Source: Phycisphaera mikurensis NBRC 102666 (GTDB lineage: Bacteria > Planctomycetota > Phycisphaerae > Phycisphaerales > Phycisphaeraceae). Taken from it: 32,000 nt of DNA. The DNA lies in NCBI RefSeq assembly GCF_000284115.1, contig NC_017080.1:1320001-1352000 (forward strand), written 5' to 3'. Both the position numbers and the translations under genes were made by a program. Of the stretch, positions 4,247 to 31,873 are shown piece by piece (within the stretch, counting starts at the first letter, position 1; every line of letters starts with the position of its first letter). The notes under the pieces were generated by a model. The model did no database searches, had not been told where the DNA came from, and saw only the letters and a program-made list of their open reading frames with translations.

Positions 4247-4303
4247 CCCCGCGCGAGCCGGTAGGTTCTGCGCGGATCACCGCACCCTCCGGAACCCTCG
4301 CCC

Positions 4304-4810
4304 ATGCCCGCTTTCGGCCTGCTCTCGGACTCCCACGGCCGCGCGACGACGACGGAGCGGGCGGTGCAGGTGCTCGTCGACGCGGGGGCGGACACGTTGC
4401 TGCACCTCGGCGACGTGGGCACGGTCGAGGTGATCGACGCGCTGGTGGCCGAGGGCGAGGACGGCGAGGAACTGCCCGCGCACGTCGTCTTCGGCAACAC
4501 CGACTGGGACGAGGGGGCGCTCGCCCGCTACGCCGAGGATCTTGGCGTGGTGGTGGACCACCCCGAGGGCGTGATCCAGCTGCCCGGCGGCGGCGAGCTG
4601 CGCTTCCAGCACGGGCACGAGGCGCCGCGCATGGGAGCCGCCATGGGCGGCGGGGCCCGCTACCTCTGCCACGGGCACAGCCACGCCCAGCGGGACGAGC
4701 GGGTGGGCTCGACGCGCGTGGTGAACCCCGGGGCGCTGTTCCGGGCCAGCGTCTACTCGGTGGCGGTGCTGGACACCGACGCCGACACGGTCCGGTTCCT
4801 CGAGGTTTGA
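4304..4810 (+). CDS. YfcE/MJ0936-family metallophosphoesterase
   Basis: Motifs SDSHG, GDVG, GNTD, HGH, GHSH in canonical order. Confidence 0.8.
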   Translation: MPAFGLLSDSHGRATTTERAVQVLVDAGADTLLHLGDVGTVEVIDALVAEGEDGEELPAHVVFGNTDWDEGALARYAEDLGVVVDHPEGVIQLPGGGELRFQHGHEAPRMGAAMGGGARYLCHGHSHAQRDERVGSTRVVNPGALFRASVYSVAVLDTDADTVRFLEV

Positions 4811-7844: not shown

Positions 7845-8351
7845 TCACCCGTCGGCGAACCCGAAGCCGCGCTGCCCCGGCGTCTGCGCCGGGGGCTGCG
7901 CTTCGCGGACGGCCTGCACCTCCTCGAAGAGATCGTCCACGTCGCGGAAGTTCATGTAGACGCTGGCGAATCGGATGTAGGCCACGGCGTCGAGCGCCTT
8001 GAGCCGCTGCGCGGTCAGGCGCCCGACCTCCAGCGAGTCCACCTCGCGGTCGCCCCGCTTGAACAGCGACTCCTCCACCGCCTCCGCGGCGGCGACCAGC
8101 GCGTCCGCGGGGACCGGTCGCTTGTAGCAGGCGGCCTGCAGCCCCGCGAGCACCTTCGCCCGGTTGAAGGGGACGCGTGTCCCGTCCTTCTTGACCACGG
8201 TGACCCGGGCCGTCGGCTCCACCCGCTCGTAGGTGGTGAAGCGCCGGTTGCACCGCTTGCACACCCGCCGCCGCCGCGTCGCGCCCGCGTCGTCGAGCTC
8301 GCGCGAGTCCACGACGCGGTCGTCGTTCTGGGCACAGAAGGGGCAGCGCAT
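7845..8351 (-). CDS. nrdR: transcriptional repressor NrdR
   Basis: MRCPFCAQNDDRVVDSR...CKRCNRRFTTYE zinc ribbon plus ATP-cone. ATG at 8351 lies inside a longer spurious ORF. Confidence 0.92.
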   Translation of the reverse strand: MRCPFCAQNDDRVVDSRELDDAGATRRRRVCKRCNRRFTTYERVEPTARVTVVKKDGTRVPFNRAKVLAGLQAACYKRPVPADALVAAAEAVEESLFKRGDREVDSLEVGRLTAQRLKALDAVAYIRFASVYMNFRDVDDLFEEVQAVREAQPPAQTPGQRGFGFADG

Positions 8352-8365
8352 CGGGTTTGAAGGTA

Positions 8366-8393
8366 CCCCCGCCTCCGGCGGGGGGCTCTTTTT
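8366..8393 (+). terminator. intrinsic-terminator-shaped hairpin (CCCCCGCC-TCCG-GGCGGGGG followed by CTCTTTTT)
   Basis: 8-bp GC stem, tetraloop and T5 run on the + strand. Lies 15 nt beyond the nrdR start codon with no + strand gene upstream. Confidence 0.4.
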
Positions 8394-8576
8394 GGAAGAG
8401 ACGCAGCGACGCTCGGAGGACGCGCGTGCGGAGAAGCTGCACGGGCCGCGAACATCGATGGCGGGGGGCTTCAGCGGGCTGGGTGAGCGAGGAAGCGAAG
8501 AAGTCAGGCAGCGCGTCGCCTCCGGCGACGAAGGCGCGCCCCGCAATCGCGTCCCGCTTCTCTATGTCTGACTTCG

Positions 8577-12546: not shown

Positions 12547-12702
12547 CGAGAAGGGGGGGGCGATCCGCGGCGCGGCGGGCGTGGAGCCAGGGGCGACGGG
12601 GGATCCCGGCGGGCATGCCCGAGCCGTGCGGCCCGGCGGCTCCGCCGGCCGGGGCTCGCTCCGGCGTCTTCATCGATCCTCCCGTTCCCGGCTTCCCGAG
12701 CC

Positions 12703-13923
12703 TCACGCGGTGGCGTCCGCGTCGGCCCGCCTGCAGATCATGGCCCGCACGCTCCGCCCCAGGCGGAGCACGAGAACCACCAGCGCCGCCTCGCCCGCTC
12801 CGCTCCAGCGGCGGGCGAGCGCGTCGGGCTCGCAGGCGCGGCCGCGGGTCTTCACGGTGACCTCGCCGGCGTCGAGCGCCCGGAGCCGGGCGGCGACCTT
12901 CTCCGGCCGGAAGGCGAGCTCCTCGAGCAGCTCGAAGGCGGTGAGCCAAGCCGCGTCGCCGGCGTCGGCGGGCAACGCGTCGGCGGTGAGCACGCCGAGG
13001 CCGGGGGCGAGCTCGGGCAGGCCCAGCGTGGGGAGCAGCTCCGCACGCTCCAGCGCCGGGTCGGGAACGAGGAGCAGGCCGGCCGGCGGGGCGGTGCCGA
13101 GGTCGGTGGACGGCTCGCCGGCGCGGTGCAGCACGCCGCCGGGCCGGACGAGCGAGGCGGAGCGGGTGGCGGTGCCGGCGAGGCGTCCCGTCCAGAGCAG
13201 GGCCTGGACCAGCGTCGAACGCCCGCCGGCGGACGCGCTCACGAAGCCCAGCTCGGCGGGTGCGCCCGGCGCCGCGAGCGTCGCGGCTTCGGCGCGGTCG
13301 ACGCCGGGGGCGAGCTTGACGCAGCCGCCGGCCGCGGCGGCGAGCGAGGCCCGGACGGCGGCCGGCCCGGGGAGCATCGCCCCGAGGCCTCGGAGCCGGC
13401 GGCCGGCGGCCCGGCGGGCGGGATCCAGGTGGACGAGGCGGCAAGCCAGCGCGCCGCGGGGGAGGTCCTCGATCCGCGCCGCCGCCGCGGGCACGCCGGC
13501 GTTCCGGCCCGCCATCCACGCCCGGAGCGGGTCGGCGTCGATGCCGATCGCGGCGACTCCGGCCTCCGCCAGGGCGATCAGGTCGCCGCCGACGCCGCAG
13601 CCCAGGTCCAGCGCCGGCGGGTCGCCGGGCCGCGCGGCGGCCGCGAAGCGCGACGCCTTCGCCGCCGCCACCGCGAGCGAGCTCGCCTGCTCCACGCCCT
13701 CGGCGTCGGCGAGCAGCGTCGCCGCCCGCTCCCCGAACTTCGGCTCCGCCTTGGCCCGGGCGGCCGCGAGGCCGAGAGCGGCGGCGACGATGGCCGGGTC
13801 GCGTCCGGCGCGGAGGCGGGCGACGGAGGCGACGCGCGAGGCGTCGGTCGCCGAGGCCTCCCGCATCAGCGTGGCGTCGCCCGCGGCGGCCGCCGCGGCG
13901 GTGATTCGGTCGGCGTGCGGCAC
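12703..13923 (-). CDS. class I SAM-dependent methyltransferase with C-terminal extension
   Basis: Motif I LDLGCGVGGD followed by GIDAD. 406 aa. Confidence 0.6.
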   Translation of the reverse strand: MPHADRITAAAAAAGDATLMREASATDASRVASVARLRAGRDPAIVAAALGLAAARAKAEPKFGERAATLLADAEGVEQASSLAVAAAKASRFAAAARPGDPPALDLGCGVGGDLIALAEAGVAAIGIDADPLRAWMAGRNAGVPAAAARIEDLPRGALACRLVHLDPARRAAGRRLRGLGAMLPGPAAVRASLAAAAGGCVKLAPGVDRAEAATLAAPGAPAELGFVSASAGGRSTLVQALLWTGRLAGTATRSASLVRPGGVLHRAGEPSTDLGTAPPAGLLLVPDPALERAELLPTLGLPELAPGLGVLTADALPADAGDAAWLTAFELLEELAFRPEKVAARLRALDAGEVTVKTRGRACEPDALARRWSGAGEAALVVLVLRLGRSVRAMICRRADADATA

Positions 13924-21613: not shown

Positions 21614-21642
21614 GACGAGCCGCAGCGAGGCGGAAGCGCCTA

Positions 21643-22888
21643 GTGCCGCGTCACGCAGCGATCCGCGGGTAGAGGCTCAGCAGCTTGATCCGGGCGTCAT
21701 CGGCGGTGAACTGCCAGTGCACGCCTCGCTGGCTCTGGTTGCGAGCGGCCGCCCAGGCTCGGGCCTCGCGATCGATCTCCTGGATGGTGTCGATCCGTCG
21801 GCCGAGGCATTGCCTTGAGAGCACACTCAGTTCGCACTCGGCGATGTTCAGCCACGAACCGTGGGCCGGCGTGTGCACCAGCTCGATCCGCTCAGCGATC
21901 CGCCGCGCCTCTGCTGCCTCGAATGCTTCGTACAACGACGCGATCCTGTGGGTGTTCAGGTTGTCGCACACCAGGCGGATCCGTGTCGCTGACTCATAAC
22001 GCGGGGCGTCCACCAACGCCTGGATCTGGTGGGCCCAGTCCGCCGCGGTGCGTCGCCGACTGGTCCGAACGTCCCGCCACCCAGCCAACGGCTCGGTGAA
22101 CATCCACAGGTTGCAGGTGCCGTGCCGCACGTACTCGTGGTCCTCGATCCGACGGCCGGTGGAGTCGGTGAAGCGGCGGCGGGTCTCGCCGATGAGCTGC
22201 TTGGGCTGCTCGTCCATGCACACCACCGGCAACGCCGGGTCGTAGGCGAGCGCGTACAGGCACAGCACCGCCTCCATGGCCGCGACGAAGGCCGCGGACT
22301 GCTCCGGCGGGATGCACCACATCTTCTTCTTCCACGGCTTCAGACCGTTTTTTGAAGAGCGCACCGCACCGCTTCGCGGCTGATCGAGTCCACCACCTTC
22401 AGCTCCACCAGCCGGCCGGCCAGGAGGCGGAGGCTCCAGCGATCATGGCCCTCGGGCGGGTCCGAGCAGGCGATCGTCACCAGCTGGGCTTCGCCTACGC
22501 CGTCGAGCTTGCGTTGCATCGCGCGGTCTTGAGGCTTGCGTTCGAGCAACGAGAGCGGACCGTCCTCGACAGCCTTCTTCCGCCAGCCCTCCACAGTGCG
22601 GACACCCGCGTCGAAAGCCTCGGCGATCTGCTCGTCGGTCCAGGCCGGAGCGCCGGGCGATTCGTCGCACTTGAGCAGGGCTTGCGCCCGCTGGATCTTC
22701 CAGCCGGCGACGCGGCCGCTGCGGACCAGCGTGGTCAGCTGCTCCCGCTCATCGTCGGTGAGGTGGACGTGGTAGAGCTTTCGATTCTTGAGCTTCGTGG
22801 CCATCCTTGGCCTCCTTTGCATTCGGTGGTGAACACGTGCACGGTGACGCTACACGCCTCACCCGCAGATCGGCGGCAGCCGCGGCAC
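21643..22888 (-). mobile_element. IS630-family insertion sequence (~1246 bp) flanked by a TA duplication
   Basis: Terminal inverted repeats GTGCCGCG...GATCCGCGGGT (21643-) and ACCCGCAGATC...CGCGGCAC (-22888). TA at 21641-21642 and 22889-22890. Encodes a DDE transposase. Confidence 0.85.
21651..22804 (-). CDS. IS630-family transposase, two frames joined by a -1 frameshift on an A6 run
   Basis: orfA (HTH, MATKLKNRKLYHVHLTDDEREQL, SD AAGGAGG upstream of ATG 22804) ends ...ALQKTV*. orfB continues NGLKPWKKKMWCIPP...DDE. The A6 slippery run is at 22348-22353. Confidence 0.85.
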
Positions 22889-24297
22889 TAGACGTGCGCG
22901 AGCTTGTTGAGCCCGTTGTAGGCGGCGACCTTGTACGCCTCGGCGAGGGTCGGGAAGTTGAACACGTTGTTGATGAAGAACTCCGCCGTGCCGTCCAGGC
23001 CCATGACGCACTGGCCGATGTGCACCAGCTCGGTCGCCCCGGTCCCCATGCAGTGCACGCCGAGGATCTTGTGGCTGTCCTGGTGGATCAGCATCTTGAG
23101 CATGCCCGTGCGGTCGCCGAGGATCTGGCCCCGGGCGATCTCCTCGTAGCGCGCGACGCCGGCCTCGTAGGGCACGCCCTCCTGGGTCAGCTGCTCCTCG
23201 GTCTTGCCGACCATCGAGATCTCCGGCACCGCGTAGATGCCGTAGGGAAACAGGTCGGTGTTGTAGTTCCCGACGTCCTGGCCGAAGGCGTGGGCGATCG
23301 CCCGGCGGCCCTGCTCCATGGAGGTGCTGGCCAGCGCCGGGAAGCCGATCACGTCGCCGGCGGCGTACACGTGGTCGACGTTGGTCTGGTAGTGCTCGTC
23401 GACCTTCAGCCGCTCGCGGTCGTCGAAGGTGATGCCCACGTTGTCCAGCCCCATCGCCCCGCACACGCCCTGGCGGCCGACGGCGTAGAGCAGCGTCTCG
23501 GCCTTGAGCTTCTTGCCGCTCTCCAGCGTCGCCTGGACGAGCGTGGACACCGTGCCGTTGCGGTGCTCCACCTTCTCGATGCGCTCGACCTTCTCGCCCA
23601 TCCGCAGCGTCACGCCCTGCTGCCGCATGAAGTACATGAAGGCGCCGGAGATCTCGCTGTCGAGAAAGCCCAGCAGCTGGTGTCGGCCCTCCACGAGCGT
23701 GACCTTCACCCCCAGCGTCGCCATGATCGACGCGTACTCGGTCCCGATCACGCCGCCGCCGACGACGATCATCGACTTGGGGAGGCGCTCGAGCTTCAGC
23801 AGGCCGTCGCTGGTGAAGATCGCGTCGTTGTCGAATGGGATGTCGGCGGGCTTGGCCGGCCGCGTGCCGCAGGAGACCAGGAAGCGGTCGGCGGTGACCA
23901 GCTGCGAGTCGCCGTCGCCCTGGATCATCAGCAGGTTGGGCCCCTCGAAGTGGGCCGTGCCCCAGATCAGATCGACGCCGTTCCGCTCGAACTGGCCGCG
24001 GATGACCTCCCACTCGTGGCGGATGACGTTCGAGGAGATCTCGATGAGATCGTGGATCGTGATCTTCTGCTTCGCCCGCGACGCCCCGCTGTAGTTGCCC
24101 CGCTGCGCGGCGCCGGTGAGGTGGAGCGCCGCCTCCCGCAGGCTCTTGCTGGGGATCGTCCCCGTGTTGATCTGGGCCCCGCCGAGCACGTTCTGCTTCT
24201 CGACGATGGCAACCGACTTGCCGAGCTTGGCCGCCTGGATGGCGCCCTTCTGCCCGGCGGGGCCGGTTCCGATGATGACGACGTCGTAGTGCTTCAT
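22888..24297 (-). CDS. sthA: soluble pyridine nucleotide transhydrogenase (Si-specific NAD(P)+ transhydrogenase)
   Basis: MKHYDVVIIGTGPAGQKGA..., GGAQINTGTIPSK (disulfide cysteines replaced as in SthA/UdhA), second GGGVIGTEYA, C-terminal dimerisation domain. SD GGAG before ATG 24297. Confidence 0.88.
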   Translation of the reverse strand: MKHYDVVIIGTGPAGQKGAIQAAKLGKSVAIVEKQNVLGGAQINTGTIPSKSLREAALHLTGAAQRGNYSGASRAKQKITIHDLIEISSNVIRHEWEVIRGQFERNGVDLIWGTAHFEGPNLLMIQGDGDSQLVTADRFLVSCGTRPAKPADIPFDNDAIFTSDGLLKLERLPKSMIVVGGGVIGTEYASIMATLGVKVTLVEGRHQLLGFLDSEISGAFMYFMRQQGVTLRMGEKVERIEKVEHRNGTVSTLVQATLESGKKLKAETLLYAVGRQGVCGAMGLDNVGITFDDRERLKVDEHYQTNVDHVYAAGDVIGFPALASTSMEQGRRAIAHAFGQDVGNYNTDLFPYGIYAVPEISMVGKTEEQLTQEGVPYEAGVARYEEIARGQILGDRTGMLKMLIHQDSHKILGVHCMGTGATELVHIGQCVMGLDGTAEFFINNVFNFPTLAEAYKVAAYNGLNKLAHV

Positions 24298-24484
24298 GGA
24301 GCTCCGCCTTCGGCGGGGTGAGGTTCGCGTGGTGGTTCGTCTCCGCCGGGGGGAACCCCCGGCTGCGCTCGCGGCGAGAACGCTCTGTCGAGGCGTGGCC
24401 CCGAGACATCAGGTGCGGCGAAACAGACGGCCGTGCACGGAGGCATCGGCGATTCGGCGTTCGCTGCGTGACGCGGCGGGCTCC

Positions 24485-24806
24485 GCCCGCACGCGTCCGC
24501 CGAGGTTATGCGTCGTTCCGCCGCGGACCGTGTGCCAAGGAACCCGCCACCCCTCCCGGTCCGCGGAGCGGACGCGAGAGCCGGGTCGCCCGCGATCCAG
24601 GCGCCGGGCCCGCAGAGCCGCCCGTGGCTCACCGCCCTCGGCGGTGTGGCCCGTCGGGCGCAGCCCGAGCGTCGGCCCGGGAGAGGGCGTCCCGACGCGT
24701 GGTTCGTGCAGCCCTCCCGGCTGTGACGAGGGAGCGCCCCGCCGCCCGGGTGCGCCGGCCGGAACCCTCGCACCCACCCGCGCAGCGTCGCGTCGCAACG
24801 CAGCGA
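24485..24806. repeat. structured GC-rich repeat, copy A (approximate boundaries)
   Basis: Shares with copies B and C the hairpin module 24521-24566, the GGGTCGC..GCGATCC stem, gtgcagccctcccg at 24706, the cccgggtgcgcc...cccacccg hairpin and the terminal palindrome gcgtcgcgtcgcaacgc. Confidence 0.7.
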
Positions 24807-24965
24807 ATACGCGTCCTCGAAAAGATTGACGCACTCAATGTCCCGGTCCTGGGTGCCACGCCCCTTGGGGGGTGGCGGGTGCCATCGGCCTGATCTGCGC
24901 TCGACCACCCCGCAAGCGGCGTGGCACCCGGCTCAGGAAGCGTCAGTCTTTTCGACGAAGCGTAT
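24807..24965. repeat. 159-bp imperfect palindrome (long hairpin flanked by A-run/T-run)
   Basis: Left arm atacgcgtcctcgaaaagattgacgcactc...gggtgccacgccccttggggggtgg mirrors right arm ccaccccgcaagcggcgtggcaccc...gcgtcagtcttttcgacgaagcgtat. Confidence 0.7.
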
Positions 24966-25305
24966 GAGTCGTCGGTCCCAGCACGCGTCATCGGCGCCCG
25001 TCTCGGGAGATCCGCGGACCGCGCGGCAAAACGCCGCCAACCCCTCCCCGTCCGCGGAGCCGGCGCTTCAGCCGGGTCGCCACGCGACCCGGGCAGGGCC
25101 GGGCTGCCACGCAGCACGGAACGGCCGCGCAGCGGACGGTGAGTCGGTCGCACGGCTTCCGGGATCCGAAGAGCGTCCCGAAGCATGGCTTGTGCAGCCC
25201 TCCCGCCCGTCGCGAGGCAGCGCCCCGTCGCCCGGGTGCGCCGTCCGGAACCCTCGCGCCCACCCGGGCAGCGTTGCGTTGCAACGCAGCTAATCCGTTG
25301 TCGGT
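24966..25305. repeat. structured GC-rich repeat, copy B (approximate boundaries)
   Basis: Hairpin module 25012-25057, stem CCGGGTCGC-CAC-GCGACCCGG, gtgcagccctcccg at 25192, palindrome gcgttgcgttgcaacgc. Confidence 0.7.
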
Positions 25306-25675
25306 TTCAACGAGCGTCATTGGGGTCCGTGTCCGAAGATCCGCGGACCGTGCGCGAAACCGCCGCCAACCGCGGACGGTCCGCCGAGCGGACGCGAAAG
25401 CCGGATCGCGTGCGATCCGGGCCTCGGCGCAGCCGACCGCCGGCGCAGCCGGCGCCACGGGCTCGCAGAGCCGCCCGTGGCTCAACGCCTTCGGCGATGT
25501 AGCCCGTCGGGCGCAGCCCGAGCGTCGGCCGGGAAGAGAGCGTCCCGAAGCGGGATTTGTGCAGCCCTCCCGCCCGTTAAGAGCGAGCGCCCCGGCGCCC
25601 GGGTTAGCCGTCCGGAACCCTCGCGCCCACCCGGCCCGCGTTGCGTCGCAACGCGGCTGTTTCGACTCGCGTTCC
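25306..25675. repeat. structured GC-rich repeat, copy C (approximate boundaries)
   Basis: Hairpin module 25341-25386 (one mismatch), stem CCGGATCGC-GT-GCGATCCGG, gtgcagccctcccg at 25559, palindrome cgcgttgcgtcgcaacgcgg. Confidence 0.7.
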
Positions 25676-25700
25676 AATCGGCGTGGCCGTTGCCCACCGA

Positions 25701-25769
25701 CGCCCGCTCCGTGCGGAAGCTGTAGTGCCCCCGCCGCAGCACCTCGTGAACCTCCGTCATCGACCCCAT
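25701..25769 (-). pseudogene. intI: integron integrase gene remnant (first ~23 codons only)
   Basis: MGSMTEVHEVLRRGHYSFRTERA matches the IntI N-terminus (IntI1 ...LRERIRYLHYSLRTEQAY...). It is divergent from and 172 bp away from the first GTTAGGC. No recombinase motifs follow in any frame. Confidence 0.6.
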
Positions 25770-25863
25770 GGGCTGAAGCTAGCTTCTGCCTTGCGTGCTG
25801 CCAATACGGCACGATATGCAGAATGTGTCGGGTCGCAACCCGCTCCAAGAGCCCCGCAGCCGC

Positions 25864-25892
25864 TTGACACCCGCCGCGACCCGGATCAAACT
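25864..25892 (+). promoter_or_regulatory. candidate cassette promoter (TTGACA - 17 nt - CAAACT)
   Basis: Perfect -35 hexamer at 25864-25869 pointing into the array. The -10 is weak, and the promoter rules of this lineage are unknown to me. Confidence 0.25.
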
Positions 25893-25910
25893 CACCCACG
25901 ACCGATCGAC

Positions 25911-25947
25911 GTTCTGCCGACAGCATTCTGTCGAATCACTGTTAGGC
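25911..25947 (+). other. attI-like primary recombination site ending in GTTAGGC
   Basis: First GTTRRRY core (25941-25947) is not preceded by an attC. Imperfect direct repeats GTTCTGCCGA / ATTCTGTCGA and inverted CGACAG/CTGTCG lie immediately upstream. Confidence 0.5.
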
Positions 25948-26174
25948 GGCGGTGAACGCGGTCCGCTCTTCCCCGTGTGTCCGCCGTCGCGCCCGTCCGC
26001 GGACCGTCGGGTGTTTCAGCCGTTCGTCCCCACGGTCCGCGGCGCGGTCGTGCGCTGCGGGCCGGCCGCACCTCGTCGGCCGAGCGTCGTCGCCGCTGGT
26101 TTCGCTGCGGCCGGCGTCGCGGCCCCGGCTCGTCGGCCATTCGGTCGGCGGCCCTCGCCGCTCTGCGCGTCGCC
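25948..26174 (+). repeat. cassette K1: 227-bp ORF-less paralogue (copy 1 of 6)
   Basis: Starts GGCGGTGAA, has hairpin CCGCGGACCGT(25997)-24 nt-ACGGTCCGCGG(26042), and a conserved 3' 130 nt ending GCGCGTCGCC. Confidence 0.85.
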
Positions 26175-26283
26175 GCCTAACCAGGCGTTGCAGCGGACCG
26201 GCAGGGTGTGGGGGTTTACAGTCCGCTCCGGGAACCAAGCCCGCCGTCAGTTCGGCCGGCCGCTGAACGCTTCTTCGTTAGGC
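26175..26283 (+). repeat. attC1
   Basis: GCCTAAC...GTTAGGC, 109 bp, imperfect palindrome. Identical to attC5. Confidence 0.85.
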
Positions 26284-26510
26284 GGCGGTAAAAGCGGTCC
26301 GTTCGTCCCCGTGTGTCCGCCGTCGCGCACGTCCGCGGACCGTCGGCGTTTTCGGCCGCTCGTCCCCACGGTCCGCGGCGCGGTCGTCCGCTGCGGGCCG
26401 GCCGTACCTCGTCCGCCGGGCGTCGTCGCCGCTCGTTCCGCTGCGGTCGGCGTCGCGGCCCGGGCTCGCCGGCCATTCGGTCGGCGGCCCTCGCCGCTCT
26501 GCGCGTCGCC
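26284..26510 (+). repeat. cassette K2: 227-bp ORF-less paralogue (copy 2)
   Basis: Same length and architecture as K1. Confidence 0.85.
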
Positions 26511-26619
26511 GCCTAACAAGGCGTTGCAGCGGACCGGCAGTGTTCCCGGGTTTACAGTGCTCCCCCGGTTCCAGCTGCGTCGTCGCTCTGGCCGGCCGCT
26601 GAACACTTCTTCGTTAGGC
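26511..26619 (+). repeat. attC2
   Basis: GCCTAAC...GTTAGGC, 109 bp. Differs from attC6 at 3 positions. Confidence 0.85.
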
Positions 26620-26853
26620 AGCACCCCAAGCGGGCTTGTGCTGCTGCGCACACGTGCCGTCTTGCCAACCCGCGGACCGTCGCGTGTTTCGGCCTTTGGG
26701 CCCCACGGTCCGCGGCGCCTTTACCCGCTGCGGGTCCGCCGTGTTCGGCTCCTTTGGCATCGCCGCAGGTCCAGCGCTGCGGTCGTTGTCGCGGCTCAAG
26801 CGCTGCTCCGCTCCCGGTCAGGGCGCCGCCGTCTTCCACGTCCCCCGCGTGCG
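26620..26853 (+). repeat. cassette K3: ORF-less, divergent relative of the 227-bp family and paralogue of K15
   Basis: Carries hairpin CCGCGGACCGT(26670)...ACGGTCCGCGG(26715). The first ~110 nt align with 31701-31810. Confidence 0.75.
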
Positions 26854-26962
26854 GCCTAACCAGGCGTTGCAGCGGACCGGCAGTGCTCGCGGGTTTACAC
26901 TGCTCTCCCGGTTCCAGCTGCGTCGTCGCTCTGGCCGGCCGCTGAACACTTCTTCGTTAGGC
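26854..26962 (+). repeat. attC3
   Basis: GCCTAAC...GTTAGGC, 109 bp. Confidence 0.85.
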
Positions 26963-26969
26963 CGCATCT

Positions 26970-27395
26970 TTGAGCGCTTCCGAGACATTCCGCCTCAAGC
27001 AGCTGGAGGAGCTCCAGGAGCTCATCCCGTCTCTGATCGACAGGCTCAACGAGATCGCCCGCGTCGATCCAACCAGATCCGGCCCAGGTGATCCCGCAGT
27101 CAACCCGTCACTGCTTGCATCTTGTCGGGCGGCAATCCCCTTGCTGCAACGTGCAACCGAGCAGTGCCACACTTTGGGTCCATCGAGCGACACGGCTCAC
27201 CACACAAGGAAGAAGAAGCCGAAACGTACCGCTGCACAGATTGCCGCAAAAAAGAAGAAGATCCGCATGACGGGGATACCGAAGGGTGGAAAGAAGCGTA
27301 AAAAGTCAAAGCTACCGCAAGGCGGACCAGCTCGCAGCGTGCGAACTGTCGGGAGCGGGCAAACGTTGAAGCCGGGAAGCCACCGCTCCACGTAA
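26970..27395 (+). CDS. cassette K4: orphan 141-aa protein with N-terminal coiled coil and lysine-rich basic C-terminal half
   Basis: ORF fills the cassette, with TTG start 8 nt after the attC3 core and stop 4 nt before R'' of attC4. Visibly AT-richer than the host. Contains KKKPKRTAAQIAAKKKKIR...GGKKRKKSK. Confidence 0.6.
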   Translation: MSASETFRLKQLEELQELIPSLIDRLNEIARVDPTRSGPGDPAVNPSLLASCRAAIPLLQRATEQCHTLGPSSDTAHHTRKKKPKRTAAQIAAKKKKIRMTGIPKGGKKRKKSKLPQGGPARSVRTVGSGQTLKPGSHRST

Positions 27396-27399
27396 TGCG

Positions 27400-27509
27400 G
27401 CCTAACCAGGCGTTGCAGCGGACCGGCAGTGTGTGGGGGTTCACAGTGCATTCCCCGGTTCCAGCTGCGGCGTCGCTCTCGCCGGCCGCTGAACACTTCT
27501 TCGTTAGGC
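27400..27509 (+). repeat. attC4
   Basis: GCCTAAC...GTTAGGC, 110 bp. Confidence 0.85.
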
Positions 27510-27736
27510 GGCGGTGACACCGGTTCGTCCTTCCCTGTGTGTCTGCCGTCGCGCATGTCCGCGGACCGTCGGGGGTTTCGGCCGCTTGCCCCCGCGGTCC
27601 GCGGCGCGGTCGTCCGCTGCGGGCTGGCCGCACCTCGTCGGCCGGGCGTCGTCGCCGCTCGTTTCGCTGCGGTCGGCGTCGCGGCCCCGGCTCGCCGGCC
27701 ATCCGGTCGGCGGCCCTCGCCGCTCTGCGCGTCGCC
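27510..27736 (+). repeat. cassette K5: 227-bp ORF-less paralogue (copy 3)
   Basis: 23 substitutions and no indels versus K1 by hand alignment. Confidence 0.85.
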
Positions 27737-27845
27737 GCCTAACCAGGCGTTGCAGCGGACCGGCAGGGTGTGGGGGTTTACAGTCCGCTCCGGGAACCAA
27801 GCCCGCCGTCAGTTCGGCCGGCCGCTGAACGCTTCTTCGTTAGGC
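27737..27845 (+). repeat. attC5
   Basis: GCCTAAC...GTTAGGC, 109 bp. Identical to attC1. Confidence 0.85.
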
Positions 27846-28072
27846 GGCGGTGAAAGCTGTCCGTCCATCCCCGTGTGTCCGCCGTCGCGCACGTCCGCGG
27901 ACCGTCGGCGGTTCCAGCGGCACGTGCCCACGGTCCGCGGCGCGGTCGTCCGCCGCGGGCCGGCCGTACCTCGTCGGCCGGGCGTCGTCGCCGCCCGTTT
28001 CGCTGCGGTCGGCGTCGCGGCCCCGGCTCGTCGGCCATCCGGTCGGCGGCCCTCGCCGCTCTGCGCGTCGCC
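27846..28072 (+). repeat. cassette K6: 227-bp ORF-less paralogue (copy 4)
   Basis: 17 substitutions and no indels versus K2 by hand alignment. Confidence 0.85.
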
Positions 28073-28181
28073 GCCTAACAAGGCGTTGCAGCGGACCGGC
28101 AGTGTTCCCGGGTTTACAGTGCTCCCCCGGCTCCAGCTGCGTCGTCGCTCTGGCCGGCCGCTGAACTCCTCTTCGTTAGGC
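28073..28181 (+). repeat. attC6
   Basis: GCCTAAC...GTTAGGC, 109 bp. Confidence 0.85.
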
Positions 28182-28186
28182 GTACC

Positions 28187-28540
28187 TTGGCGAAACCGAC
28201 TTCCGAAGCGGCTTGGCTCGGAGCGTTCGCCGCGATCGTCTGGACGTTCCCCATCGTTGCTCTATTTGCGCTTCTGTATCGGTTCCCGATTCCTTTCGCC
28301 GGGTACATGACCGGACCGGCAGCGGTTCCCCCGGCCATGCTGGCTGTCTTGTTCTACGGTGCGCTCGGGGGCGTCTTCGTTCAGCTCCTCGCGGGCTTGG
28401 GTGCCGGTGTGGCCGCTTGGTGGTGGGCCCGTCCCAATCGCAGCCGTAGCAACCGCTACGCAGTGGCGTTGGCCGCTCTTGCAGCCGTCCCGGGTGTGCT
28501 GCTCCTGGCAGTCCTCGACCACCTCATCGGCCCGTGGTGA
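28187..28540 (+). CDS. cassette K7: small multi-TM membrane protein (117 aa)
   Basis: ORF fills the cassette, with candidate TTG start 6 nt after the attC6 core and stop 4 nt before R'' of attC7. Three to four hydrophobic helices. Start is uncertain. Confidence 0.5.
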   Translation: MAKPTSEAAWLGAFAAIVWTFPIVALFALLYRFPIPFAGYMTGPAAVPPAMLAVLFYGALGGVFVQLLAGLGAGVAAWWWARPNRSRSNRYAVALAALAAVPGVLLLAVLDHLIGPW

Positions 28541-28544
28541 GCAC

Positions 28545-28653
28545 GCCTAACCAGGCGTTGCAGCGGGCCGGCAGTGTGTGGGGGTTTATGCTGCTCTCCC
28601 GATTCCAGCCGCGTCGTCACTCTGGCCGGCCGCTGAACGCTTCTTCGTTACGC
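28545..28653 (+). repeat. attC7 (variant core GTTACGC)
   Basis: GCCTAAC...GTTACGC, 109 bp. Confidence 0.8.
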
Positions 28654-28665
28654 GGCTTGAGCACT

Positions 28666-28992
28666 ATGTTGGTACTGCTCATGCTGGCCACTCAAGCGTT
28701 GCTGATCGGCGTCGCGGTGGGTGTGCGGACTTCTCGGACCGAGCGTTCTGCCAAGGATTCTGCTGCGCTCGCTTGGGGGTGGGCGCTGGCTGTCCTCACT
28801 CTGACCCTGTTCATCTTCGCAGTCGTGTACGAGGCTGTATCACCTCGACCGCTCGGGCACCCGGTCCTGGTCGCGCTCTCGTTCACGCTCTTGTGGTGGT
28901 TCATTCCCCCAATTCTTCCTGCCGTCGCGGGGCTTGCGGCAGCGAGCTGTTGGATTCTGCGTCGTGCTCGCCCGCAAGGTCCGGCCGCCTAA
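28666..28992 (+). CDS. cassette K8: small multi-TM membrane protein (~108 aa)
   Basis: ATG 28666 (or TTG 28657). Product MLVLLMLATQALLIGVAVGV.... The stop TAA is the TAA of GCCTAAC in attC8. Confidence 0.5.
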   Translation: MLVLLMLATQALLIGVAVGVRTSRTERSAKDSAALAWGWALAVLTLTLFIFAVVYEAVSPRPLGHPVLVALSFTLLWWFIPPILPAVAGLAAASCWILRRARPQGPAA

Positions 28993-29094
28993 CCAGGCGT
29001 TGCAGCGGGCCGGCAGTGTGTGCGGGTTTACACTGCTTTCCCAGTTCCAGCCCGCCGTCGCTCTGGCCGGCCGCTGAACGCTTCTTCGTTAGGC
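28987..29094 (+). repeat. attC8
   Basis: GCCTAAC...GTTAGGC, 108 bp. Confidence 0.85.
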
Positions 29095-29321
29095 GGCGGT
29101 GAACGCGGTCCGTTCGCCCCCGTGTGTCAGCCGTCACGCACGTCCGCGGACCGTCGGCGTGTTCGGCCGCTCGTCCCCACGGTCCGCGGCGCGGTCGTCC
29201 GCTGCGGGCCGGCCGTACCTCGTCCGCCGGGCGTCGTCGCCGCTCGTTCCGCTGCGGTCGGCGTCGCGGCCCCGGCTCGTCGGCCATCCGGTCGGCGGCC
29301 CTCGCCGCTCTGCGCGTCGCC
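29095..29321 (+). repeat. cassette K9: 227-bp ORF-less paralogue (copy 5)
   Basis: Same length and architecture. Closest to K2. Confidence 0.85.
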
Positions 29322-29430
29322 GCCTAACAAGGTGTTGCAGCGGACCGGCAGGGTGTGCGGGTTTACAGTGCTCTTCCTGTTCCAGGCCCGCCGTCAGTTC
29401 GGCCGGCCGCTGAACACTTCTTCGTTAGGC
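29322..29430 (+). repeat. attC9
   Basis: GCCTAAC...GTTAGGC, 109 bp. Confidence 0.85.
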
Positions 29431-29657
29431 GGCGGTGAAAGCGGTCCGTTCTTCCCCGTGGGTCCGCCGTCGCGCATGTCCGCGGACCGTCGGCGAGTTC
29501 GGCCACTCCTCCCCACGGTCCGCGGCGCGGTCGTCCGCTGCGGGCCGGCCGTGTCTCGTCGGCCGGGCGTCGTCGCCGCTCGTTTCGCTGCGGTCGGCGT
29601 CGCGGCCCCGGCTCGCCGGCCATCCGGTCGGCGGCCCTCGCCGCTCTTCGCGTCGCC
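29431..29657 (+). repeat. cassette K10: 227-bp ORF-less paralogue (copy 6)
   Basis: Same length and architecture. Confidence 0.85.
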
Positions 29658-29766
29658 GCCTAACCAGGCGTTGCAGCGGACCGGCAGCGTGTGCGGCTTT
29701 ACAGTGCTCTCCCGGTTCCAGCTGCGTCGTCGCTCTGGCCGGCCGCTGAACGCTTCTTCGTTAGGC
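29658..29766 (+). repeat. attC10
   Basis: GCCTAAC...GTTAGGC, 109 bp. Confidence 0.85.
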
Positions 29767-30187: not shown

Positions 30188-30297
30188 GCCTAACTCGGCG
30201 TTGCAGCGGACCGGCAGTGTGTGCGGGTTTACAGTGCTCCCCCCGGGTCCAGCTGCGTCGTCGCTCTGGCCGGCCGCTGAACGCTTCTTCGTTAGGC
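30188..30297 (+). repeat. attC11
   Basis: GCCTAAC...GTTAGGC, 110 bp. Confidence 0.85.
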
Positions 30298-30461
30298 CGC
30301 ACCAAACCGGGCGGTTGGGCTCCGCTCCTCCGCACGCTGGCGGGCGTCGCCGCCGGCCGCTGCTCGGCGTGCTCGCCGCTCGGTTCGCTGCGTCGGCCGC
30401 CGCGGCTCCAGCTCGCCGGTGCTCTCGTGCAGCCGGGCCCGTGGCACATCCGCCGCGTGCG
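30298..30461 (+). repeat. cassette K12: short (164 bp) ORF-less cassette related to the 3' half of the 227-bp family
   Basis: gggcgtcgccgcc...gctcggttcgctgcgtcggcc resembles gggcgtcgtcgccgctcgtttcgctgcggtcggc. Lacks the hairpin module. Confidence 0.6.
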
Positions 30462-30570
30462 GCCTAACCAGGCAATGCAGCGGACCGGGGGTGTGCGCGG
30501 GTTTACGGTGCTCGCCCGGATCCGGGCCGCCGTTGTGGTTGCCCGGCCGCTGATTGCTTCTTCGTTAGGC
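30462..30570 (+). repeat. attC12
   Basis: GCCTAAC...GTTAGGC, 109 bp. More divergent inner arms (ggcaatgcagcgg / ccgctgattgc). Confidence 0.8.
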
Positions 30571-31537: not shown

Positions 31538-31684
31538 GTGGCCTGCCTCGCGTTGCTGGCTTCGCTCTTGGTGCTCCTGCTTGCCCCACATCCGCTCATG
31601 GCACTGCCTGTCGTCATCTTCGGCGTCGGTGGGCTCGGTGCTGCGGCGGTGGCGTACTCCGCCAGTCGCGCTCCCGCCGCCTAA
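31538..31684 (+). CDS. cassette K14: possible 48-aa two-TM peptide
   Basis: GTG 31538. Product VACLALLASLLVLLLAPHPLMALPVVIFGVGGLGAAAVAY.... The stop is the TAA of GCCTAAC. Below the ORF-track size cut-off and the start is speculative. Confidence 0.3.
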   Translation: MACLALLASLLVLLLAPHPLMALPVVIFGVGGLGAAAVAYSASRAPAA

Positions 31685-31700
31685 CGCTTCTCCGTTGGGC
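31679..31700 (+). repeat. collapsed attC (R'' + 8 nt + R' only)
   Basis: GCCTAAC-gcttctcc-GTTGGGC. The whole L-box/variable region of the ~109-bp site is missing. Confidence 0.6.
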
Positions 31701-31873
31701 CGCACCCAAAGCGGGCTTGTGCTGCTGCGCACATCCGCCGTCTCGCCAAGCCGCGGACCGTCGCGGGTTTCGGCGTCCCGGCCCCACGGTCCGCGGCGCG
31801 GCGGCCTCGTGCGGTGCAGCTCCGCCGCTCATCCGGTCGCCCTCCCCGCCGCCTTCCACGCTCGCCGCGTGTG
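31701..31873 (+). repeat. cassette K15: shortened paralogue of K3, last recognisable cassette
   Basis: Starts CGCACCCAAAGCGGGCTTGTGCTGCTGCGCACA as K3 does. Hairpin 31751-31796. Ends gcgtgtg followed by the decayed GTCCTAC. Confidence 0.65.

Follow-up and report, generated by a model that had tools for sequence, protein, structure and literature searches.

The stretch of DNA analysed in this work (referred to throughout as the window) comprises 32,000 nt of the forward strand of Phycisphaera mikurensis NBRC 102666 (NC_017080.1:1,320,001-1,352,000; G+C content about 73%), and it contains an integron whose integrase gene, intI, is reduced to its first 23 codons, with an attI junction and an array of attC sites that are intact as far as the sequence can tell. 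We consider it about 80% probable that this locus represents the platform of a sedentary chromosomal integron after decay, and that the repeats now following the intI stub serve as filler. On the minus strand the stub is followed by 42 unique nucleotides, the repeat units L3 and L2, an insert, the repeat unit L1, the leader of the gene sth and then sth itself. The locus is identical in assembly GCA_014207395.1 apart from two base differences, both of which lie within an insertion sequence (IS) element. The parts of the locus are as follows.

22888..24297, minus strand: sth (soluble pyridine nucleotide transhydrogenase), with G+C at third codon positions (GC3) of about 1.0; homologues are named Si-specific NAD(P)(+) transhydrogenase
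24298..24530, minus strand: 5' leader and promoter region of sth; 87-89% nucleotide identity to the contigs L123-L125 from sth to 24530
24521..24805, minus strand: repeat unit L1, 285 nt, ending in the ancestral 46-bp palindrome and without the 55-nt tail
24806..24958, no strand assigned: apparent foldback insert, 153 nt, at the L2/L1 junction, recognised by its fold and by comparison of the junctions
24959..25291, minus strand: repeat unit L2, 333 nt, with a middle segment unrelated to that of L1 and L3
25292..25658, minus strand: repeat unit L3, 367 nt, with a 33-nt internal duplication
25659..25700, minus strand: unique 42-nt segment separating the breakpoint from the first repeat; the stub open reading frame (ORF) reads through it as SVGNGHADWNASRN
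25701..25769, minus strand: intI stub, codons 1-23 (MGSMTEVHEVLRRGHYSFRTERA), based on translation, an IntI N-terminus profile, shuffles and codon-position G+C
25770..25940, no strand assigned: intI-attI intergenic region, with a weak candidate cassette promoter (Pc) read by eye and a spacing comparable to that in L142 and L132
25941..31700, plus strand: cassette array with 14 attC sites of the form GCCTAAC...GTTAGGC, running to or past the window end

The stub begins at ATG 25769, three codons after an in-frame stop (25781-25779, minus strand), and the translation of 25781-25659 on this strand reads as the stop, LQP, MGSMTEVHEVLRRGHYSFRTERA and SVGNGHADWN, with Ala23 encoded at 25703-25701. 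A first-pass annotation, made from the sequence alone, had taken this ATG to open an IntI N-terminus and had proposed tblastn and HMM searches as a check. In their standard form these searches return little, as tblastn with IntI1 alone gives a non-significant E of 0.12 for the stub region, and the Pfam and NCBIfam scans find nothing on the stub ORF or on the three long ORFs over the repeats. Because the HMMER filters discard short matches, our own IntI profiles were built, and with these the result is significant. The N-terminus profile consists of 10 IntI N-termini independent of the window, viz. IntI1, IntI3 and eight from attC-motif loci (a scan of genomes with an attC L-box pattern, which gave 120 loci from many phyla, was the source of independent IntI sequences). 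Searched with this profile, the stub peptide scores 17.2 bits over positions 6-29 (E 9.3e-5) and ranks first among 557 six-frame peptides of the window, the runner-up having an E of 0.73. When the whole window was shuffled 200 times with its dinucleotides preserved, the top score obtained, 10.3 bits, fell short of that of the stub. Further, when the back-translated motif HYSFRTERA was used to scan JGI metagenomes, 15 contigs were matched, 8 of them at IntI N-termini. All eight of these IntIs read ...LRRxHYSFRTERAY..W.RRF, and the three that are full length are 52-55% identical to IntI1. The stub is identical to LRR.HYSFRTERA of these real IntIs at 12 of 13 positions and it diverges exactly at the invariant Tyr, its similarity ending at Ala23 where the IntIs continue AY..W; the annotation had the similarity stop at this very place, where the conserved tyrosine and the xxW motif are due. 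The G+C of the stub at codon positions 1, 2 and 3, counted from the sequence, is about 65, 48 and 96%, a pattern like that of sth.

The distance to attI points in the same direction. The junction of attI with the first cassette, G/TTAGGC at 25941, lies 172 nt from the ATG of the stub and on the opposite strand, with the stub facing away from it, and the HYSFRTERA motif is 240 nt from GTTAGGC, compared with 216 and 266 nt in the intact integrons L142 and L132. These two integrons, which have the same type of IntI, likewise cross over at GTTAGGC. One could still suppose that the 23-codon match is a chance ORF and that the array is a cluster of attC sites lacking integron-integrase (CALIN) that moved here and was never next to an intI. 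Such a supposition would be consistent with the tblastn and Pfam/NCBIfam results and with the failure of single-sequence searches of large protein libraries to find an IntI with the stub. It is nevertheless extremely improbable, as the independent profile and the shuffles speak against it, HYSFRTERA occurs in real data mostly at IntI N-termini, the codon-position G+C has the pattern of a native gene, and the position, orientation and attI distance of the stub match those of intact integrons. Of the single-sequence searches, a word-indexed protein search with the 45-aa stub gave no candidates, a result that reflects the index, since metagenome IntIs with HYSFRTERA exist, and the one match of an exhaustive phmmer search with the 35-aa stub was rejected as an artefact (seven identical 4-bit repeats in a 3036-aa protein). 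Because the profile score, the shuffles, the HYSFRTERA matches, the codon G+C and the attI distance all agree, the stub is on these measures a real IntI N-terminus. An orthologous intact IntI would begin M..TEVHEVLRRGHYSFRTERAY, and the breakpoint is predicted between 25701 and 25700.

No other part of the integrase was detected. A full-length IntI profile built from eight sequences, when applied to all frames of the 32 kb, picks out the stub alone (E 0.063), no other match falling below E 4, and no catalytic, C-terminal or additional-domain remnant of IntI is seen in any frame of the window. The tyrosine-recombinase boxes, which the annotation had been unable to find in 24300-25700, are lacking there in every frame as well as in the rest of the window, and there is no further intI sequence within 24 kb on one side and 8 kb on the other. 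In the 2.3 kb by which L001 extends past the right window end, SDR and sulfatase genes are present and no integrase domain was found. A complete integron carries an intI with the IntI-specific additional domain; here codons 1-23 are all that was found, and the array, as had been claimed, has no cis-encoded recombinase in the 32 kb. An in-frame fusion of the stub to box II through 'GHAD' (25688-25677) was considered and rejected, as this similarity consists of only 4 residues and nothing follows it in any frame. Two translations within the repeats, on the same strand as the stub, have an IntI-like appearance, viz. YSLRCDATLRGWVRGF at 24809-24759 and WDRRLIRF at 24980-24957, and if they were genuine then intI could merely have been interrupted by a frameshift or an insertion, with its remainder nearby and restorable. 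However, their scores of 1.5-4.7 bits are inside the null range (maximum 10.3), they fall on repeat sequence whose other copies show stops in that frame, and no C-terminal or catalytic intI segment occurs in any frame of the window, in which the sth leader follows directly after L1. The head of L1 shows a DNA identity of about 42% to the stub's own codons. A merely interrupted intI is therefore very improbable, and for this window it may be regarded as already refuted. A derivation of the L units from intI was likewise rejected, the two translations being noise.

At 25941 the homology of the R copies (described below) starts exactly at the G of GTTAGGC and the sequence to the left of it is unique; because of this, 25941 is taken as the junction of attI with the first cassette, in agreement with the annotation, according to which attI survives. 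The array contains at least 14 attC sites, 12 of the 14 being about 109 nt long from GCCTAAC to GTTAGGC, and when folded, their bottom strands look as attC sites should, with R-box and L-box stems and, on one arm, two bases left unpaired. Both the attI geometry and the attC array are thus, by sequence and fold, those of a complete integron. None of the 120 loci from the attC scan, when compared over their full length by BLAST, is close to this attC family or to the L or R sequences. The candidate Pc read by eye consists of TTGACA (25864-25869) and, after 17 nt, CAAACT (to 25892); a consensus scan found no sigma-70-like promoter or terminator, and planctomycete promoters may differ from the consensus. 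The R cassettes are 336 bp long, lack an ORF and are present in six near-identical copies, which form three duplicated R-R pairs (92-94% identity between pairs).

25941-26612, 27503-28174 and 29088-29759, no strand assigned: R-R cassette pairs of near-identical 336-bp units
26613-26955, 30291-30563 and about 31700-31830, no strand assigned: diverged R copies

One 46-bp palindrome is found in every R cassette, and these cassettes could be non-coding or small RNA (sRNA) cassettes. The remaining cassettes carry small ORFs, a C2H2 zinc-finger protein and, in reverse orientation, an FMN reductase. Near the distal end of the array (31679-31700) the sequence GCCTAAC-GCTTCTCC-GTTGGGC is an attC of which only the two R boxes are left, its interior having been deleted.

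In place of the integrase body the annotation had described three copies of a repeat of about 340 bp, and these correspond to the three L units listed above, which the program TRF does not detect; the coordinates and sizes given in the annotation are essentially correct. Their pairwise identity is 68-87%. In every pair the 5' core of 125 nt has 82-86% identity; in the middle, L1 and L3 agree at 91% and L2 is unrelated, and the hairpin part is 75-78% identical. The region 24300-25700 shows no codon periodicity, compared with the GC3 of sth, and the indels between the L units are not multiples of 3; because of these observations and the lack of Pfam, NCBIfam and Rfam matches, the L units are considered to be non-coding. 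In the Rfam 15 scan no match reached the gathering score over the window, and only chance-level matches were seen at E <= 5 in 24200-28700. The ORF across the repeats is registered at NCBI as the P. mikurensis protein HNQ78_000860, and a search of 5.8e9 proteins with the 312-aa ORF over L2 and L3 returned only this protein, i.e. itself. No other copy of the 5' core was found by pattern scans (of which the genome scan is weak, as it did not recover the source locus), by nhmmer or by the protein search with the overlapping ORF. The L units were also considered as R cassettes in degenerate or inverted form, a reading that was rejected because the 46-bp palindrome is all that the two have in common. 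The 42-nt segment between the stub and L3 has no similarity to the tails of the L units, to IntI or to any locus compared.

The position of the units on the strand of the stub and sth, together with their richness in hairpins, raises the question of whether they are functional structured RNAs (sRNAs or a long leader) that are transcribed from the surviving intI promoter toward sth and were selected to occupy the place of the intI body. Some observations are in accordance with this: single units fold with z = -2.6 on the minus strand compared with -1.8 on the plus strand, relative to shuffles; the 5' core is kept in all three copies though the middle of L2 has been replaced; and a predicted long-range helix contains one double change from A-U to C-G. 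However, the covariation term in the alignment fold is about 0 (with only 3 copies in the alignment), there is no Rfam match even at E <= 5, the genome and metagenome pattern scans and the protein search revealed no L copy elsewhere, in relatives the same leader serves for the expression of sth and no L unit is present, and the consensus scan gave neither a promoter nor a terminator for an L-unit transcript. A functional RNA role is on this balance unlikely. Regarding the annotation's description of an integrase body "replaced by structured repeats", it is apt for the layout, and a replacement as an event would be conjecture; the fold and covariation values say little for a functional structure. 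The repeats are most likely filler.

The 153-nt insert at the L2/L1 junction accounts for the palindrome of 159 bp that had been noted in this region. Together with flanking bases it forms a 160-nt palindrome (24807-24966) that folds as one long hairpin (-58.8 kcal/mol, z = -8.6). Its terminal inverted repeats of about 19 bp (CGTCCTCGAAAAGATTGACGC / GCGTCAGTCTTTTCGACGA) are flanked by AGCGAAT and AGCGTAT, and it looks like a foldback insertion or one of the type of a miniature inverted-repeat transposable element (MITE). It resembles MITEs in its terminal inverted repeats, its imperfect 7-bp flanking direct repeat and its lack of coding capacity, but differs from them in that it is single copy in all of the sequence compared and in that it is unlike the termini of the neighbouring IS630-family element. 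A derivation from IS630 was rejected on account of the latter.

Each L unit also contains a copy of the 46-bp palindrome, which has the form CCGCGGACCG-N26-CGGTCCGCGG, i.e. conserved arms of 10 bp and a spacer whose length is fixed at 26 nt and whose sequence is variable. The arms hold overlapping SacII and RsrII recognition sequences. The copies in the window are located as follows.

24521-24566, 25012-25057 and 25341-25386, no strand assigned: copies ending L1, L2 and L3, one per L unit
4201, 9595, 12524, 17471, 18455, 25997, 26333, 26670, 27559, 27895, 29144, 29480 and 31751, no strand assigned: copies outside the L units, about 46 nt each

The palindrome occurs 16 times in the window and likewise 16 times in 70 kb of sequence from relatives, compared with a single copy in 938 kb of unrelated loci, and 32 half-sites are observed in the window compared with 1.6 expected. 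The copies are mainly intergenic, some of them straight after stop codons, and from these counts the palindrome appears specific to the Phycisphaera lineage. A second dispersed element, the M module, forms the middle of L1 (24600-24690) and of L3 (25455-25545) and is 80-84% identical to four copies in the relative L126. In L126 two intergenic palindromes of about 150 nt (1020-1178 and 8296-8447) each consist of two inverted M modules with the core TCACCGCCCCCGGCGGTGT. The L units are accordingly mosaics of lineage-specific intergenic repeat modules. In Escherichia coli, the repetitive extragenic palindromic (REP) sequences are short GC-rich intergenic palindromes, often located past stop codons, which cluster into tandem mosaics, the bacterial interspersed mosaic elements (BIME). 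The 46-bp palindrome and the M module resemble these by description, in that they are dispersed intergenically both here and in the relatives, and the former is, as expected of a REP/BIME-like element, a short palindrome with many intergenic copies that is also present in close relatives. In contrast to REP/BIME, it has 10-bp arms and a variable 26-nt spacer of fixed length, and the L core is known at this locus only. It may be added that at 4280-4305 the sequence GCACCCTCCGGAACCCTCGC, 40 nt beyond a 46-bp palindrome, precedes a start codon by 5 nt; it agrees at 17 of 20 bases with CCGTCCGGAACCCTCGC, a conserved segment of the L core, and this agreement may be due to chance or to a common motif.

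The site of the integron was compared with four metagenome contigs in which sth is present at 94-96% amino acid identity. The metagenome relatives are those of ENA ERZ25039505 and ERZ27264759. Homology from sth reaches 24530 or 24532 in three of these relatives and 24331 in the fourth, and the 24530 breakpoint falls within the 46-bp palindrome 24521-24566.

L123:9732-9775, L124:9657-9702 and L125:9888-9933, no strand assigned: palindrome at the sth breakpoint in relatives, with both arms kept and unrelated spacers

Further upstream, the three palindrome-bearing relatives have cas1/cas2 and 4.7 kb without called genes, an FG-GAP gene, or an Xre/RES toxin-antitoxin pair with sod; in the fourth relative the palindrome is not present at this place and sod is directly upstream of sth. 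Because the homology with all four relatives stops at or before 24532, P. mikurensis is, in this comparison, the only one to have the integron, the stub and the L units, all of which lie in a variable spot upstream of sth. In L123:1-10000 a Cas3-like gene is followed by cas1 (split in two), cas2 and the 4.7 kb without called genes up to sth, which is presumably an array of clustered regularly interspaced short palindromic repeats (CRISPR) in the integron's place. The 46-bp palindrome might also be active itself, as a site or hotspot at which recombination takes place in the Phycisphaera lineage, and might shape the region upstream of sth. If this were true, exchange inside the palindrome would create the variable region and would drive the tandem amplification of the L units and of the ORF-less R cassettes, and a second, integrase-independent shuffling system would operate beside and within a dead integron. 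We regard this as quite unlikely, and neither for a role as recombination sites nor for one as RNA do the repeats at present find more than little support.

The sequence of events under the preferred reading, that of a decayed integron platform, would be as follows. A deletion or rearrangement would have removed intI codons 24 to about 320 and brought the stub next to intergenic DNA, rich in repeats, that lies upstream of sth. Unequal recombination or slippage between the palindromes would have given rise to the tandem L units, which would be filler without a replacement function; most simply, the repeats are intergenic DNA of this kind amplified by unequal exchange between palindromes. The cassettes would no longer be excised, captured or reshuffled by a cis-encoded integrase, and the array would be frozen unless IntI is supplied in trans, changing only by homologous duplication and deletion. 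Four points weigh against this reading or limit it. The 5' core of the L units, conserved at 82-86%, is known only from this locus, and constraint could be responsible for its conservation. The scan for the L motif gave 0 matches in genome contigs and 0 in metagenome contigs, but the genome-contig scan missed the source locus itself and is therefore weak, the species probably not being included or the locus being masked. Within P. mikurensis the searches for IntI covered the window and the adjoining 2.3 kb, and a second intI, or more L units, may lie in the rest of the genome. Lastly, an intact orthologous intI turned up in none of the relatives, and the event may have been a deletion, an insertion then deletion, or an inversion, before or after the amplification of the repeats.

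In the terms of IntegronFinder, a CALIN is defined by at least 2 clustered attC sites and by the absence of an integron-integrase from the surrounding 4 kb (Cury et al. 2016, PMC4889954), and the P. mikurensis array, having at least 2 attC sites and no integrase within 4 kb, falls under this definition. CALINs outnumber complete integrons, integrase loss has been proposed as their origin, and 38% of them have an IS element nearby (PMC4889954). The locus is like them in its attC array without integrase and in its nearby IS element, but differs in that the attI junction and the first 23 intI codons are kept. In the same survey, intI pseudogenes were found near only 15 of 279 CALINs, by a screen that registers only matches to over 50% of the profile intI_Cterm or PF00589 (PMC4889954). 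Because this screen requires the C-terminal domain, the stub described here would be missed by it; no PF00589 is found on the ORFs of the region and no C-terminal match to our own IntI profile. Pseudogenes make up about one in three intI genes in another survey (Nemergut et al. 2008, PMC2426708), and most of those described retain the IntI-specific domain and carry frameshifts, stop codons or partial deletions (PMC2426708, and the Xanthomonas surveys as cited therein). Pseudo-integrons of this kind share with the P. mikurensis locus the loss of integrase function and the retention of the cassette array, but about 93% of the intI is gone here. That intI often decays and that arrays without an integrase are frequent (PMC2426708, PMC4889954) in turn supports the decay reading.

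The locus is a clear fossil in which attI and the start of the gene persist; it shows a CALIN that formed in situ when the integrase body was lost, and it documents an integron-type array in a cultured species of Phycisphaerae. Most CALINs have no recognisable intI remnant, and N-terminal stubs escape screens that rely on the C-terminal domain. N-terminal-only pieces of intI are also present at unrelated loci, viz. L026:2370-2594, L097:5430-5621 and L141:8959-9084, corresponding to IntI1 residues 24-98, 15-78 and 2-42, respectively, and at L130 (about 899-1000) intI seemingly ends after AY. Because of these remnants, the share of CALINs that derive from local decay may be underestimated, and N-terminal stubs may be a recurrent end state of integrase decay. 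As it currently stands, the P. mikurensis locus is a clean but ordinary case of integron decay, and its repeats point to no new mechanism.

On the other side of the repeats, sth is the first real gene and the sole strongly coding gene that adjoins the finding. In L125 a tandem repeat of about 121 bp with at least 5 copies is located between sth and a GH38 gene (12650-13300), and it has a weak nhmmer similarity to L-unit positions 187-267. In P. mikurensis the sth gene is bordered by the IS element referred to above.

21642..22891, minus strand: IS630-family element, with DDE_3 and HTH_32 domains, terminal inverted repeats and a synteny gap

This element is missing from close relatives. A draft assembly and one Logan contig both end at it, and an attempt to sample further P. 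mikurensis genome via its copies gave two short Logan contigs only. It abuts the stop codon of sth, which is overlapped by its terminal inverted repeat CTAGTGCCGCG and the TA target, and its HTH_32 and DDE_3 ORFs are offset, as expected for a frameshift.

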